Part shown: one piece after another, positions 1 to 6,000 of the stretch | Numbering within the stretch: the stretch's first letter is position 1 | Layout of the letters: the number at the start of each line of letters is the position of its first letter | Source: Fidelibacterota bacterium | GTDB lineage: Bacteria > Fidelibacterota > Marinisomatia > Marinisomatales > S15-B10 | Direction: 5' to 3' | DNA: 10,417 nt | Assembly (NCBI GenBank): GCA_046861655.1 | Contig: JBHIAI010000061.1 | Coordinates: 1 to 10,417 of the forward strand | Made by a program: the position numbers

Positions 1-3000
1 CAGGTTGAGGTCGTAACGGAAATGTGCTCACCCTGGACGATCTGGGAATGGCAACTGGTACACCGGAGTTCCTTTCCCCTGCGGAGTTTGATAAGGTGGG
101 GCCGGTGGTCGAAGAGAATCCCTTCCTTGAAAGGTACGACTCCCTCCAGAAGGCTCTCCTCGTGACATCCGGAGCGCAGACAGCTTGCATCCTCGATTTC
201 CGCCCAGGGCTTGCTCTTCTTGTAGACACCGGTAAAATAGTTTACCACCATGGAAATGGCGGTGAACTTGCCCCTGACATGGGACTTCCAGCCGGGAGGG
301 TAATGGCAGTCGGTACAGGTAACCGATGAATGGGTGGACGTCTTCCAGGCCTCCACGTACGGCTCCATGTAATGACACGTGGAGCAAAAACCGGGACGGG
401 AGGTCCACTCAGCGGCGCCGTATAAGATGATACCGAGCAGCACAAGGCCGCCAAGAACGACCCCCGACCACCGGAGCAGGGTCTTATTCATGGTCCAACA
501 TCCCCTGCGTCCCGGCCGGTCAGACTGTGTCGCTCGTGGGAATGGCCCCCTCCATCATTCATCCATGTCCGGAGGATACGGATGGGCGATCTGCTCCAGG
601 AATTCGTCGAACTTAAACCCCTTGAAGGTAGGGCTCTTTTCGTTGTGGCAACCCAAGCAGGTTTCTTCATCCGGCATCAACAAGCCGACTTCGGCCCTAT
701 CGAGGGTTCCTTCGTGAATCTCCTCCATGGTGGACTTGGACTTGTACGCACTCCCCGGACCGTGGCATGCCTCGCATCCAACCGCCTGCAGTCCTTCCAT
801 CCGTCTCACCGCCTTCCTGGCTTTCCTGTCTTCCGGATCCGGATTCCAGAAGGCCTCATCTTTGACCTCGTAACCGCCACTGTCATACCCCGTTGTGTGG
901 CACACCAGGCACTCCGGTGCCTCATGGGCCGGACCTTCCAACTTGATTCCTCTGGCAATCTCCGCTGCTTCCTCGGTCTTTAGTACCTCGAAGGCACCCG
1001 CATGAGCACTTGCTTCCCACACTTTGTACTGGGCGCCCTTCTTACTGCTGGAATGACAGATCTTGCACTTCCGGGAGCCCACGTATTCGAAATCCTGGGA
1101 CCAGGCGAGACCCCCTGTCATCAGAAGAATCACCAAGATCTTTGTCATAGATCCCTCCTTATGGTTTTGATTCATCCCCCCAACCACTCGTCAATATCTT
1201 CCGGGTCGTGGCAGGCGGTGCACGCCCTGGTTTCCCCGGCTACTCCCCCGTCCAGATTCTCCCCGTGGCACCGGGCACAGTCCTCAAATCCCCGGCTCCG
1301 GGCCTGATTACCGTGAAAAACGGTGCTGTCGGGAGTCAATAACCACACCCTGGGATGAGGATGCCCGCTGGGTCCCCCTTCGTGACAGGTGTAGCAGGAG
1401 ACTCCACTGGTGCCTCCCTCGTAATCTTCCCCGTGGCATCCCTGGCATCCTCCGATTCCCGCGGATACAATCCTGGCCATGTGAGAATTGTCGTTGCCCG
1501 GATCCAGCCACGACCCTGGATGGACAGTGGGCTCCCCTTCCTCCGTACAACCCCCCGAAAGAATGAGAACCAGGGACAGCACAACAGTGCAAAATGGAAA
1601 GTGCAAATTGGAAAGTGCAGAATTATCCAGTATCCCTCGTGTTTTCACTTTTGCATTTTTCATTTTACAATTTGCCTTTTGAAATGAGCCGTCAATGGCA
1701 CCGCAGACAGGTGCCCGTCTCCGGTTCATGACAGGCCAGGCACACCTCTGGTTCATCCAGAGCCGCAGCGGCGTGTCGCCCTCCATCCTCCACAATCCCG
1801 GGCAATCCCACCCAATCCGAAAGATTATGATCCATGGGCATCACCGGATTCTGCCTGTGGCAGTCCTGGCAATAGGTCCGAATCTCGTGACAGGTCGAAC
1901 AATCTGTGATGCCGCTGCGGGCGTCAAACCCGTGATTGAAAAGATAGGAAACCGGATGGATGTTTGCCTCAAATTGCTGAAGCTGGTGACAGTCGTCACA
2001 GGAGGCTTGAGTGTGACAGAGCATGCAGTTTTCTTCGGTAACCGGGTTCACCCGGGATCCATGAACCCACATCCAGTCCGCCATGTGATTATCCGGTCGG
2101 ACCGATGAATGGCATGACCGGCAACCGGCTTCCTCCCACACGGGGGGGGCGGCAAGACCGTCATCCGCATAAATGGTTCCGTGACAGTCACTACAATCGG
2201 GCCGTTTTGCCAGGTGAAAGAGGTGAGAAAATACCGGGCCCGATCTTGAGGGTCGCTCCCGGTAGGTCATGGGATTCTCCGGGTCGGCATGGCAGGCAGA
2301 ACATTCATCCGTGGCCAGATCCCCGTCATGGCATTCCAGACAAGATTCCTCTTCCGGCAGGAGACGGATATCCAGGGAAACGGATTCCTCGACCCCTTCG
2401 TGGCACTGGGTACACTCCAGTTCCATCTCTTCCACATGAAGCTGATGAGGAAAGATAATTCGGTCCCGCTCCTGGGCACTTAGGAGGAAAACGGATATCA
2501 ACATCCAAAGACTACAACGTCCCATGGATCGCCAGTCCGCCCCTCCCGTCAAGATCATAGTAGGGGTTTTTGTTCACCTGTCCAAACACCCGCACAACCA
2601 CCTTCTTCAGAGGATTCCACGAAAGCCAGCCGTACAGTCCAGTGGCCGTCCCGCCCGGGCGGGAGACAAGATCCCCGTAGTCCACGGCGTTTACAGTAAG
2701 CTGAACCCCCGAGGTAAGTGAAGAGAATATTTTCTGTTTGGTTCCCGCTCCGCCCCCGAACAGTCTCCTGTCTCCCTGGATTCCGGCCAGGGCTGTAAGC
2801 TGAAATCCCTTCACGGTCAGCGTACTTGAGACATAGGAGGCCGGATTGTCGCCCATCCGGTAAATGAGTTGATTCCACCAGGTGACGCTGCTACCCACTG
2901 GCGACATAGCACCCAGGGTTACCGCCGCAGGCACAACCGTTTTTTCCTTCACCCACGGGTAGGGGCGGGCAGTGGGCAGCCGTTTATTCCTGACGCCCAG

Positions 3001-6000
3001 CCTGAACCGCTGATTACCCACATTCGTTGACGCTGATAGACGAACATAGTGAAGGACATTATCGGCAAGATTCCAGGCCATGGCTGTCGAAATCCTTACC
3101 TTTCTCAGCACAACCCCGTTCCAGCTGGACCCCACGTACGACACCGTCCCCAGGGTGTCATGGTGACTCCAGGCAGTGACAGAAAAGTTCCTTCCAGGCT
3201 TTCCTTTTCCCCAGGAAACCAGAAAGAACGACCTCTTCGTGACCGACGTGTCGCTGAAGTCTGATACTGCTGGGAATCCCCCCAGAAGGGTCACCGATCC
3301 AAACCTCTCTGTATCCACTGTGTACTCCGCACCGTCAACCCGGGTCTGAACCAGCCCGCTCCAGTGGGTCATTCTTCCTGCTCTCAGGGTATGAGGTCCC
3401 ACGGTCAGTCGCGCCAGCATATCGTGTATTCGGAAAGGATTGCGAAATCGGAAATTCTCCGAGCCGTATTCGAAGTGGGTCTGCAGGCTCAGGATCGACC
3501 CGAAATTCTGCCTGTACTGTCCCCAGACTCGCCAGTGCACTGCAGTATCTGTGGAAACCATATGGAGCCGCGGTGTGATGATGGTGGAGGAAATGGAGAT
3601 TTCTGGTTCCTCCGCTCCAAGGACGGTGAGAAAAGCGAGAAGAGGGAGAACCCTTTCGGGTTTCGACATGGTGTTGGTGGACAGCAGTTTCATCCTGCTA
3701 TTCGCCTGCTCCAGCATCGCGTGGAGGCTGGTATACCCTCACCGGAAGTTCGGAAAATATTGAGGCATCCAAAAGAAGAATTCATGATATAGGCCTCTTC
3801 TATGACTCTTCCCAGATGGGACATCCTATCCTGTGTCTTTCAGGGATTCGTGGTTGAATTCCCTGGGGGCTCCATCGTAAGGGCCGAAGAAAGGCGCAGC
3901 GTTTGAGAAAAGTCGGATTGTACCATGGGGGGAAATTACGACCTGGACATGGATGGGCAAAGATATACAGACCACCATATCCTGTTTTTCGTTTGAATCC
4001 TCTTTCCCCAATCTGTAGCGCATACTGGGAAGTCCCTTTTCCACTACCCCATTTCTTATCCAAAGGAGCTCGGACGTAGGAATTCTCCATTCCCTCGACC
4101 CTCGGACCCTCTATTCGTCCCATTGTCCATTTCTTCAGTTCTTCCATGTTCCAATGGGCAGGTCCATCGAAAATCATTGATTCATTTACCGTTGGGACCT
4201 AATTTGCAAATGGATAATAGGGTCTTAATAACGTTTATTTGGTTTCTTCTTCCCCTTCCGGAAAAGACCCTGAGGAGTCATCCATGATTCTGAGCCGCTC
4301 ATCCGAATACGGCATCGAATTGGTGATATATCTTTTGACCCACGACGTACCGGAGTATGCCTCCTTAAGGACTATCTCAAGGGAGACGAACCTTTCGTTT
4401 CACTACTTGAGTAAGATTTCCCGGATGCTCACCCGACGGGATATCCTGATATCCTACCGGGGACCTCGGGGAGGTGTGGCTCTGGGAAGAACCCCGGACG
4501 AAATCACCCTGTTTGACATCGTTCATGCCATCGAGGGAGACGACCTTTTTGAAAAATGCGTCCTGAGGCCGGGCCCCTGTCGGGGGGAAGACCCCTGCTC
4601 AGTACACGAGCAGTGGCTGCCCATCCGCGACCAGATCCGTAGACTTTTTATGGAAACCAGTCTAGAATTCCTCCAGGACCACAGAGTGGTCCCCGAAAAC
4701 CAGAAAGAAGCCTGAGGATTCCCATGACACAAAAACCGTCCCCTCCTCCCTCGTCCCATAAGCCTCGACCACCGCTGCTGAACCGGCTTCCCCAGGATCA
4801 TCTCATCGCCACCTTGATGAGGGAACATCAAGACATAGTCAAACTGCTGGATAGGCTCCGGACCCTGACAGAAAAGCTCGATTCCCTGGAATCTCCCCAG
4901 GACAATCCTGGTCTTCTGGACCGGCTGTCCGAAGTGACAGAGAATCTCCTGGAGGTGGAACTCCACCACGACCGCGAAGAAAAGATCCTCTTCCCGGCCC
5001 TAGAAAAACAGGGTATCACCGACTCTCCCTACGTCCTGAAAGAAGAACACCAGATCCTGCGCGATATGAAGACCAAGTTTCTTGAGGCCCTTAGCCAATC
5101 CAGAAAGAAGGATTTCCCTGCCGTAAAAGCCAGGCTGGGTTACTACGGCCGAAGCATCGACCGCCTGGTCCGAAAACATATCGAAACGGAAAACACCGTC
5201 CTTTTTCCCGCGGCACTGCAGGCCATCCAGGATGAAACCCGCTGGAAAAACCTGAAAGCCGAGAGTGAGAAACTGGGAAAAAAGGCTTGACTGCCCCTCA
5301 GGGCTCTTGTTAACTTTAATAAGATTTACGGGGGAATATGCCATCCAGGCCATGATCTACCTGGCCGAACAGGACTCCGATGAACCGATAATGATTGGCG
5401 AGATCGCCAAGGCCTACGGCATTCCCCAGCAGTTCCTCGCCAAGATCGTGCAGACGCTGGTCAAGCACCGCCTCATGGTCGCGGTCCGGGGTCGAAAAGG
5501 TGGGGTGAAACTGGCCCGGGATGCCTCGGAAATATACCTGCCTCAGATTGTGGCAGCCATCGAAGGTCCTGCGCCGGAGGAGGAACCCTGTGTGTTCGGC
5601 CTGGATGCCTGTTCTGACCAGGAGCCGTGTCCCCTTCACCACCAGTGGACAGTGATTCGGGACGAGATCCGCCATATGCTTGAGCATGAGGACCTGAAGA
5701 AATTGGCCAAACGCGTCAGTGAGAAGCACCTGGCCATGCAAAATATTCTTCCGGTCGAAGGTTAGTTCTTTTCGGCCGGACTGCTTCTTGAAAGTTGGTG
5801 CCCGGAAGGTGACCCTCTTAACTCACCTGCAAGCACCCCCCAGCATGTACTTGCCAACGCAGCTCCATCCGGGGGCGCCCGTCTTCGGGTGGAAACTGCG
5901 GACCTACATGTCACACCGGGCACCAACTTCATTTTTCTCCCTCAAAACAACTTGATTTCATTCCCCGGACGCGTAAATTTTGTTGCGCGGAGGCCCACCC

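Follow-up and report, generated by a model that had tools for sequence, protein, structure and literature searches.

The window (the whole 10,417-nt stretch of contig JBHIAI010000061.1 that was analysed) carries on its minus strand, where the survey's finding had placed them, the ORFs of an operon that runs from a barrel gene to a gene cut by the contig start. Two Rrf2 genes and a haemerythrin gene adjoin it, as also noted in the survey, and are transcribed divergently from it. From the barrel gene to the cut gene we count 0, 11, 4, 4 and 3 CxxCH motifs, in agreement with the earlier counts, plus one CxxxxCH in the cut gene. The features are as follows:

3..491, minus strand: N-terminal 163 aa of an about 660-670-aa NapC/NrfH-anchored 18-haem cytochrome (PF03264, E 7e-13)
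555..1148, minus strand: periplasmic tetrahaem c554-like cytochrome (PF13435, E 8e-16)
1172..1663, minus strand: tetrahaem lipoprotein with di-haem repeats and a lipobox ending SGGC (lipobox; orthologues)
1585..1690, no strand: AT-rich interspersed repeat (blastn-short: 13 more matches, spread over 12 other contigs of this genome)
1692..2525, minus strand: periplasmic 11-haem cytochrome, 277 aa (11 CxxCH; gene overlap; modelled interface)
2512..3717, minus strand: outer-membrane beta-barrel of 22 strands, no plug domain (AF2 model, charge, structural alignment)
4170..4233, no strand: 64-bp non-coding block upstream of the first Rrf2 gene (conserved in a same-genus genome)
4284..4715, plus strand: Rrf2 regulator with a C-x6-C-x5-C-x2-H pattern (PF02082; sequence)
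4724..5290, plus strand: haemerythrin-domain protein (PF01814, E 3e-20)
5265..5765, plus strand: second Rrf2 regulator with the same Cys/His pattern, real start probably near 5307 (PF02082)

The longest ORF of the barrel gene encodes 401 aa, and the lengths of relatives suggest 3669 or 3693 as the likelier start. AlphaFold2 modelling of the mature protein with 94 sequences (pLDDT 91.9, pTM 0.81) yields the 22 strands proposed earlier; no Pfam or NCBIfam model matches at E ≤ 0.1, and a search of representatives reproduced the reported numbers of relatives (41 proteins at E ≤ 0.001, 27 at E ≤ 1e-30). An alignment-based protein search returned only 10 proteins, the named ones all from Marinisomatota, which shows that its word index is insensitive here; a single-sequence scan of genome contigs gave no match. 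The barrel has a net charge of +18 and a basic, Arg-rich inner face, and net charge is positive in 90 of 94 barrels. Fold searches place TonB-transporter and usher barrels closest: structural alignment gives Z 20.6 (rmsd 4.4, 341 aligned) for the barrel part of TonB-dependent transporters and Z 16.3 (rmsd 5.0, 323 aligned) for MtrB. Assignment as a TonB-dependent transporter was rejected, since the N-terminal plug is missing and the mature chain, all barrel, aligns to the transporters' barrel part only. The MtrB_PioB family, with 28 predicted strands (Shi et al. 2014, PMC4245776), was likewise rejected, on the 22 strands and because neither PF11854 nor any NCBIfam model matched in sets of 94 and 26 members; PF11854 was not found in the barrel's own genome either. 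No sequence relative of the barrel was found among solved structures, and no solved 22-strand porin-cytochrome complex in the fold searches; no Geobacter-type porin-cytochrome structure is among the matches listed there, which does not speak against kinship with that type.

The start of the 11-haem gene overlaps the barrel stop by 14 nt, and such an overlap is present in 58 of 58 loci. The encoded protein (P0057, 277 aa, is 100% identical to it) comprises an N-terminal c7-like part with haems 1-5 and a C-terminal part with haems 6-11. It has ten invariant non-motif His, a number that for 11 haems suits a bis-His wire, and one near-invariant Met. Modelled alone it is poor (pLDDT 66, pTM 0.42), and a fold search with this low-confidence model gave nothing at E ≤ 0.001. 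Modelled together with the barrel it scores 0.74, against 0.00 for the best of three controls, a mark attained by 116 of the 157 solved complexes and by 2 of the 215 mismatched pairs; this pass may reflect likeness to the solved MtrAB complex, as the controls were unrelated proteins rather than multihaem cytochromes and the job specified no haem ligands. Between runs, at least 89% of the contacts agree, the pLDDT of the partner is at least 72, and the part with haems 6-11 touches 22 of 22 strands, mostly at alternating positions. The model thus predicts that the C-terminal six haems lie within the plugless barrel. Charge is consistent with this placement: the cytochrome carries -31, and all 56 partners analysed are net negative. 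An assignment as a decahaem DmsE/MtrA partner was rejected, the protein having 11 haems and matching TIGR03508 at E 0.04 with 13 bits against a cut-off of 192. The barrel-contacting half aligns with an unnamed protein of 400 aa and 14 haems at 62.7 bits, where shuffles give at most 35.6 and other multihaem proteins 6-12, and on this alignment we regard the partner as homologous to the 400-aa, 14-haem class; the locus of the 14-haem homologue was not found among viral contigs and plasmids. A di-haem repeat common to this C-terminal half and the lipoprotein was not supported (E 0.16).

A lipobox pattern (regex) occurs in 40 of 51 orthologues of the lipoprotein, which hold 3-25 haems; those in Krumholzibacteriota reach 28, for an overall range of 3 to 28, and the protein is probably the terminal cytochrome on the outer surface. 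The AT-rich repeat sits between the 11-haem and lipoprotein genes and extends into the lipoprotein's N-terminus. The c554-like gene, present in 41 of 59 loci, encodes only two conserved non-motif His for its four haems (His/Lys/Met conservation).

For the cut gene, the survey's finding of a 584-834-residue 17-haem frame mixed two proteins. The window gene belongs to a class of 651-700 aa with 17 CxxCH, one CxxxxCH and one N-terminal helix; a separate class of 829-856 aa has 17 CxxCH fused to a cytochrome b and no orthologue in this genome (tblastn), and we therefore reject assignment to a 17-haem class of about 830 aa. The fragment matches the NrfH model at E 1e-14 (54.5 bits, below the cut-off of 134) and PF03264 above cut-off. 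NrfH/NapC quinol dehydrogenases have a helix at the N-terminus, CxxCHxM at the first haem and a conserved Lys, and are small tetrahaem proteins with an acidic residue at the quinol site; here M42 and K75 are conserved in at least 90% of 20 orthologues, whereas size (651-700 aa, 18 motifs) and the consensus Met, not Asp, after the Lys depart from that pattern. A same-genus protein of 670 aa matches window positions 491-3 with its residues 1-163 (88%) and contig C144:3-530 with residues 490-665 (69%), so that the C144 piece corresponds to the C-terminal 176 aa and about 326 codons are missing from the assembly. Judged from this relative, the operon very probably continues on C144, where a CbcL-like cytochrome bc follows: 11 CxxCH and PF01292 above cut-off, with eight conserved His in the membrane part, as in a fusion of a multihaem c domain with a di-haem cytochrome b. 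If the join holds, the operon encodes about 48 c-haems.

On the upstream side, the Cys/His pattern of both Rrf2 proteins resembles the Fe-S ligand pattern of IscR. A homologue of the second Rrf2 gene occurs in 10 of 59 loci, directly before the barrel gene in six, and the haemerythrin gene in one of 59. The 64-bp block, 84% identical over 64 bp, is the sole match of the intergenic stretch among 59 loci and possibly represents a promoter or operator. An ORF at 3800-4177 without family match or match in relatives was treated as spurious.

In a sample of 401 Marinisomatota genomes a search for the conduit core gave 67 hits, one being noise; G030, which stops inside the match, was excluded from these. 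Of 66 hit genomes, seven (G339, G172, G316, G209, G205, G190 and G030) lie outside the 59 loci examined. A second search matched 88 genomes, of which 16 weaker than 1e-69 were left uncounted (most match the c7-like half only; G007 and G019 do carry the operon); for L095 and L096, the E-values against A4 are circular. The core is thus found in about 72 of 401 Marinisomatota genomes (~18%), and in 28 of 151 Krumholzibacteriota genomes. Next after the barrel gene comes an 11/12-haem gene in 18 of 18 Krumholzibacteriota loci and in 58 of 59 loci from Marinisomatota, where the remaining locus stops at a contig edge. A quinol module of NapC, cytochrome b or NrfD type is encoded in 43 of 59 loci; in 13 of the 16 others the contig extends less than 5 kb downstream. 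Neither the 18-haem nor the 17-haem-b gene was found in any of the 18 Krumholzibacteriota loci, so that both are dispensable for the core. The locus of one Krumholzibacteriota barrel was not found among viral contigs and plasmids. The window DNA recurs in hydrothermal vent metagenomes, all from one study, in which no contig spans the window and one extends 200 bases past its start; run X4 contains just a small share of it, and none of the matches listed is an RNA dataset. The genome (93% complete) encodes CcmE, two CcmF-length matches, a haem-copper oxidase and, on contig C68, one ORF that is Cyc2-like by its motif; MqnA/D were not found and MenB had no match at cut-off, while PF02776 is too general to identify MenD.

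Synteny, gene overlap, complex model, charges, lipobox and C144 together give good support to the survey's prediction of a porin-cytochrome conduit wired to the quinone pool, and the barrel gene beside a periplasmic multihaem cytochrome gene matches the gene layout of the general porin-cytochrome class. We consider it fairly probable that this one operon provides an electron path across the whole envelope for respiring extracellular acceptors (metal oxides, sulfur particles, humics or partner cells) at low oxygen. For topology, direction and substrate we infer the following route. The NapC/NrfH-anchored 18-haem protein and the CbcL-like cytochrome bc would act in parallel to oxidise quinol, and may be likened to the high-/low-potential ImcH/CbcL pair of Geobacter. 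From the long chains of periplasmic haems in these two, and from the c554-like tetrahaem protein, electrons would move on to the 11-haem protein at its c7-like N-terminal half; its six C-terminal haems are modelled within the barrel, and the repeat lipoprotein would accept them at the surface, its length tuned by adding di-haem units.

The same conduit could run inward, as MtoAB/PioAB do, carrying electrons from Fe(II), sulfide minerals or partner cells via cytochrome b/NapC to quinone and on to oxygen or nitrogen oxides. The vent habitat, the haem-copper oxidase and the Cyc2-like ORF would suit that direction, and section 7 of PMC4245776 also describes cytochrome-b fusions in mtr/mto clusters; yet the surface lipoprotein and the CbcL-like and NrfD modules match the reductive Geobacter layout, and MtoAB and PioAB lack extracellular cytochromes (He et al.), which makes inward flow unlikely. 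That the conduit serves surface sulfur chemistry (S0 or polysulfide) instead of metal oxides is suggested by a tandem rhodanese gene (24 of 59 loci) and a 9-10-haem gene (27 of 59), both mostly just upstream of the barrel, by NrfD/HybB-type subunits in 11 and 5 of 59, and by the non-metal substrates Shi et al. raised for I. album; as neither the rhodanese nor the 9-10-haem gene has a homologue in this genome (tblastn, E ≤ 1e-8) or in the 18 Krumholzibacteriota loci, we hold it to be improbable here. Equally hard to credit is a barrel that only exports or anchors the lipoprotein, with the 11-haem protein as plug or chaperone without electron crossing and the other cytochromes as a periplasmic store: its closest folds are indeed plugged transport pores, and one control protein was also modelled against the barrel (532 contacts, none confident), but the contacting half holds six haem motifs with invariant His ligands and quinol modules are co-encoded.

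Marinisomatota (SAR406, Fidelibacterota) are usually regarded as heterotrophs or fermenters; outward electron transfer through this conduit would link some of them to electron flow that involves metals, sulfur or syntrophy. A FeGenie screen had previously recorded carriers of porin-cytochrome genes in Marinisomatota, and passages of PMC5492636, PMC5317091, PMC3534657, PMC8114936, PMC8470020, PMC7382037 and PMC10732223 do not mention the cluster. Such organisms are probably undercounted in screens: neither Pfam nor NCBIfam offers a model for the barrel, and FeGenie gives the rows of the similar barrels in C. abyssi and I. album as undetected. Cultured C. abyssi DSM 13497 has a look-alike cluster, and its Fe(III) reduction was untested as of 2018, so that the idea can be tested directly.

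Compared with known systems, the locus shares with Shewanella MtrCAB/MtoAB/PioAB a barrel-enclosed cytochrome, here predicted, and a surface lipoprotein, but the barrel has 367 aa and 22 strands against the 649-residue MtrB chain, and the partner is c7-like rather than of DmsE/MtrA type. PCC3 (porins of up to 42 strands, median 21/34 haems), PCC4 (4/5/10 haems, no extracellular cytochrome; both PMC5566968) and peat EET1-4 (10.64898/2026.05.27.727921) likewise combine a porin and multihaem cytochromes in one cluster, PCC3 and PCC4 also with a cytochrome b-like inner-membrane protein; by their descriptions, these two differ in gene sizes and haem counts, in a stand-alone 5-helix inner-membrane protein and in the phyla concerned (PMC5566968). 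The quinol modules resemble Geobacter proteins by description: the C144 protein shares with CbcL a multihaem c domain, cytochrome b (PF01292) and conserved membrane His, with 11 haems against nine, and the cut gene shares with ImcH a NapC/NirT N-terminus, with 18 haems and one helix against seven haems. ImcH and CbcL direct electrons outward in Geobacter, according to PMC12307469.

The closest comparison is with Pcc, defined by a porin of 18-22 strands, a periplasmic cytochrome of 5-14 haems and usually an outer-membrane lipoprotein cytochrome (Shi et al. 2014, PMC4245776); here we find 22 strands, 11 haems and a lipobox. The survey's finding held the conduit to be unrelated to MtrAB or Geobacter Pcc. 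By sequence no relation to MtrB is seen; for Geobacter Pcc the claim is unproven and probably wrong, since the partner is homologous to the 400-aa, 14-haem class, the size of the I. album partner. Porins of Ignavibacterium, Melioribacter and Caldithrix are grouped as Geobacter-like Pcc (PMC4245776, PMC6137239, PMC7399161). Identity between OmbB and the I. album porin is no more than 19% (PMC4245776, Table S1). IALB_1839-1838-1837 (421 aa/0, 400 aa/14 and 286 aa/6 haems; Shi et al. 2014, PMC4245776) has the same order of porin, periplasmic and outer-membrane cytochrome, with 14 haems against 11 in the partner, and the C. abyssi cluster matches in sizes and haems (385/10, 404/0, 298/12, 132/4, 649/11, 920/19); this link rests on sizes, haem counts and unnamed homologues, and the rows listed for both clusters lack the 18-haem NapC-anchored gene. 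The neighbouring clusters in the Atlas come from Calditrichota (309 aa) and Ignavibacteriota (395 aa). It seems doubtful that the barrel is instead a family of its own, not descended from OmbB, ExtB/E or MtrB and overlooked by the annotation libraries now in use, with members in Marinisomatota and Krumholzibacteriota and probably also in Calditrichota, KSB1, Zixibacteria and Myxococcota, and that a single Marinisomatota operon offers two or three quinol modules able to replace one another, among them an 18-haem NapC-anchored wire not described before that could span to the outer-membrane conduit without a soluble shuttle; electroactive genomes would then make up about a fifth of those sampled in the phylum. 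Geobacter OmbB-OmaB-OmcB, ExtEFG and ExtABCD show the same three-part layout and order, unlike the present locus without quinol modules in the same operon, and we conclude that the locus is a variant of the Pcc-type conduit, a kind of wire known from iron-breathing bacteria, and new as a variant.

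Five minus-strand genes run head to tail from position 3717 to the contig start, with CxxCH counts of 0, 11, 4, 4 and 3 in gene order and one additional CxxxxCH in the last gene, a recount that agrees with the 11, 4, 4 and at least 3 of the survey's finding. The operon and its surroundings comprise the following features:

2512-3717, minus strand: barrel
1692-2525, minus strand: 11-haem partner
1585-1690: member of an AT-rich interspersed repeat family that also matches 12 other contigs, as well as other contigs of the vent runs
1172-1663, minus strand: lipoprotein (gene 3)
555-1148, minus strand: c554-like protein (gene 4)
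3-491, minus strand: gene 5, cut by the contig start
6012-10417: housekeeping neighbours (YqeY, CvpA, DNA primase) and, on the minus strand, the C-terminus of a TonB-dependent receptor
8886-9875: 329-aa protein without a family match

The barrel gene has no match in Pfam or NCBIfam, as claimed earlier for Pfam. Among 94 aligned relatives, none matches NCBIfam at E<=0.01, and Pfam returns three weak families only, each in 1-3 of these relatives. Our search of 1.84 billion representatives reproduced the 41 relatives reported before, 27 of them with E<=1e-30; those bearing names are Neomarinimicrobiota/Fidelibacterota. The DNA was found in hydrothermal vent metagenomes, all from one study. An AlphaFold2 model built from 94 sequences (pLDDT 91.9, pTM 0.81) again has 22 strands, and the entire mature chain forms the barrel. 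In structural comparison it superposes on the barrel region of TonB-dependent transporters (at best Z 20.6, rmsd 4.4, 7% identity with 341 residues aligned) and on MtrB (Z 16.3). As modelled, the barrel is without a plug, and another component presumably occupies it.

For the 11-haem gene the likeliest start is 2525, which gives 277 aa as in its database copy P0057 and an overlap of 14 nt with the barrel stop. All 58 loci whose barrel is complete have a start codon overlapping the barrel end: 36 share one offset (automated count), and the other 22 have either of two further offsets in the same frame (counted by eye). Within 2512-2545, the codons for a conserved RGG motif at the barrel's C-terminus yield a purine-rich, Shine-Dalgarno-like stretch ahead of the overlapping start; 31 of the 36 loci with this offset have such a stretch. 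With ten invariant His outside the motifs and one nearly invariant Met, the partner's sequence fits a mostly bis-His wire.

Modelling of the barrel together with the 11-haem protein gave a score of 0.74, compared with 0.00 for the best control, where the controls were non-cytochromes, the runs contained no haem ligands and the solved MtrAB complex may have steered the prediction. Of 157 solved complexes 116 attain this mark, as do 2 of 215 mismatched pairs. Across runs, contact agreement was at least 89% and partner pLDDT at least 72. All 22 strands of the barrel take part in the modelled contacts, mostly at alternating positions. On the cytochrome side the contacts fall in residues 133-211 and 240-262, corresponding to haems 6-11, and the c7-like haems 1-5 make hardly any. 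Net charge is +18 for the barrel and -31 for the cytochrome, with net-positive barrels in 90 of 94 and net-negative partners in 56 of 56 cases.

Gene 3 carries a lipobox, seen in 40 of 51 orthologues (regular expression), and the lipoprotein is presumed to lie on the cell surface; its orthologues have 3-25 haems in repeated units, and up to 28 in Krumholzibacteriota. In the c554-like protein just two spare His are conserved, against four haems, and Lys and Met are conserved as well; it may therefore contain open or non-His haems and play a catalytic role.

Gene 5 had been taken for the start of a 17-haem protein of up to about 830 residues, a reading that merged two classes. It is the N-terminus of a class of 651-700 aa with 18 haem motifs, 17 conserved spare His, a CxxCHxM and a conserved Lys; distinct from it is a 17-haem cytochrome-b fusion of 829-856 aa. 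Full-length copies occur in 20 (18-haem) and 29 (fusion) of 59 loci, both in 14, and some quinol module is present in 43. The operon very probably runs on, to judge from sequence and gene order, to another contig of the same genome:

C144:3-2544 (L090): tail of the 18-haem protein and CbcL-like cytochrome bc; probable operon continuation
C144:2787-3798: ArsP-like permease, apparently frameshifted because its matches fall in two frames

At the start of C144 lie the final 176 aa of a multihaem protein; behind them come an 11-haem/cytochrome b fusion and the permease. A genome of the same genus (G276) has the order barrel, 11-haem, lipoprotein, c554-like, 670-aa 18-haem, 665-aa CbcL-like, permease; residues 1-163 of its 670-aa protein match our contig at 88% and residues 490-665 match C144 at 69%, and no contig yielded the middle, a gap of about 1 kb. 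If the join is true, the operon would encode about 48 c-haems. Optional downstream modules comprise Fe-S, HybB/NrfD and a 13-haem protein (11 and 9 of 59 loci; L043:13431-16376) as well as an 8-haem protein with a second NrfD type (4 and 5 of 59; L045:10961-13655).

Of 401 genomes in the phylum, 67 gave a match to the barrel query; one match was noise, and loci were fetched from 59 of the remaining 66. These contain the partner in 58, the lipoprotein in 51, the c554-like gene in 41 and the CbcL-like gene in 33 instances. The partner profile at E<=1e-69 is matched in 72 of 401 genomes (counted from rows), and two weaker matches also hold the operon; neither query matched in families f3 (0/37), f26 (0/33) or f28 (0/30). 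In G328 (L041) many genes of the operon are broken up, and the barrel of G099 (L062) is about 100 aa short, reflecting either assembly errors or decay. Among 151 genomes from the phylum to which the Krumholzibacteriia genome G401 belongs, 28 have the partner, each with an upstream barrel-like frame, and the barrel alignments of the two phyla agree along 330 columns (probability 98.1, E 8e-14). Wide loci from 18 of these 28 genomes keep the core trio in 18, 18 and 16 cases; neither the 18-haem nor the 17-haem-b gene was found in them. Named homologues of the partner, with 11-21 haems, come from KSB1, Spirochaetia, Poribacteria, Thermodesulfobacteria and Deltaproteobacteria.

The host genome has cytochrome c maturation genes and, on other contigs, the following genes:

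C151:13903-15954, minus strand (L129): T9SS-sorted cytochrome (7 CxxCH and a sorting domain); in 4 of 59 loci a homologue lies next to the operon
C110:1015-2745, minus strand, and 2949-3324 (L128): 9-haem protein (N-terminus lipoprotein-like, with a region of cytochrome c552 type) and an adjoining third Rrf2 homologue
C68:2141-3781, minus strand: single ORF with one N-terminal haem motif and a C-terminal Phe, a motif we take to be Cyc2-like; near an 8-haem 1008-aa frame

Homologues of the 9-haem protein stand beside the operon in 2 of 59 loci and in 3 of 18 from Krumholzibacteriota, with relatives beside the barrel in L072, L139, L141, L146 and probably L148 and L149. Rrf2 genes occur at 10 of 59 loci, within upstream flanks of 3-6 kb. 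An upstream module (e.g. L043:755-2950) brings a 9-10-haem protein in 27 and a tandem rhodanese, its N-terminus lipoprotein-like, in 24 of 59 loci; the host genome yielded no match to this module.

The operon is real and strongly conserved. Electrons would most likely pass outward, a path we hold to be probable: from quinol to the 18-haem and CbcL-like modules, through periplasmic chains to haems 1-5 of the 11-haem protein, on to haems 6-11 inside the barrel, and via the surface lipoprotein to an extracellular acceptor. That the same conduit carries electrons inward seems unlikely; a conduit for surface sulfur chemistry has little chance of being correct, and a non-conducting pore equally little. 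The new elements are (i) an operon spanning the whole envelope, (ii) the 18-haem NapC-anchored and 17-haem cytochrome-b proteins, (iii) the extendable lipoprotein, (iv) the breadth across the phylum and (v) a supported structural prediction of pore plus wire.

In the literature searched, which included few subscription papers, we came across no account of the operon in Marinisomatota; the supplement of a peat preprint may contain related families. Marinisomatota are named among FeGenie porin-cytochrome carriers, the system not being described in the accessible text (PMC10809760), and the available rows of the MHCscan table (PMC11475568) name no Marinimicrobia, Marinisomatota or Fidelibacter. 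That table's C. abyssi cluster, with a 404-aa protein as ORF 1611 of NZ_CM001402.1, matches the operon in sizes and haem counts; Fortney et al. (PMC6137239) describe a Geobacter-like porin in C. abyssi, and Arbour et al. (PMC7399161) term Ignavibacteria porins OmbB-like. Atlas places the 11-haem partner beside Calditrichota and Ignavibacteriota clusters. An unnamed 400-aa 14-haem protein matches the barrel-contacting half of the partner, above shuffles and other multihaem proteins; the 400-aa 14-haem partner of the I. album Pcc cluster (PMC4245776) resembles this homologue in size and haem count. The survey's finding had called the system unrelated in sequence to MtrAB or Geobacter Pcc. This holds for MtrAB, from which the operon differs in strand number, family match and partner type, but probably not for Pcc. 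Shi et al. 2014 (PMC4245776) define that class descriptively by 18-22 strands and 5-14 haems, which the operon fits; porin identities within the class go down to 8%. We favour viewing the operon as the form that the Pcc-type conduit of FCB-group bacteria takes in Marinisomatota.
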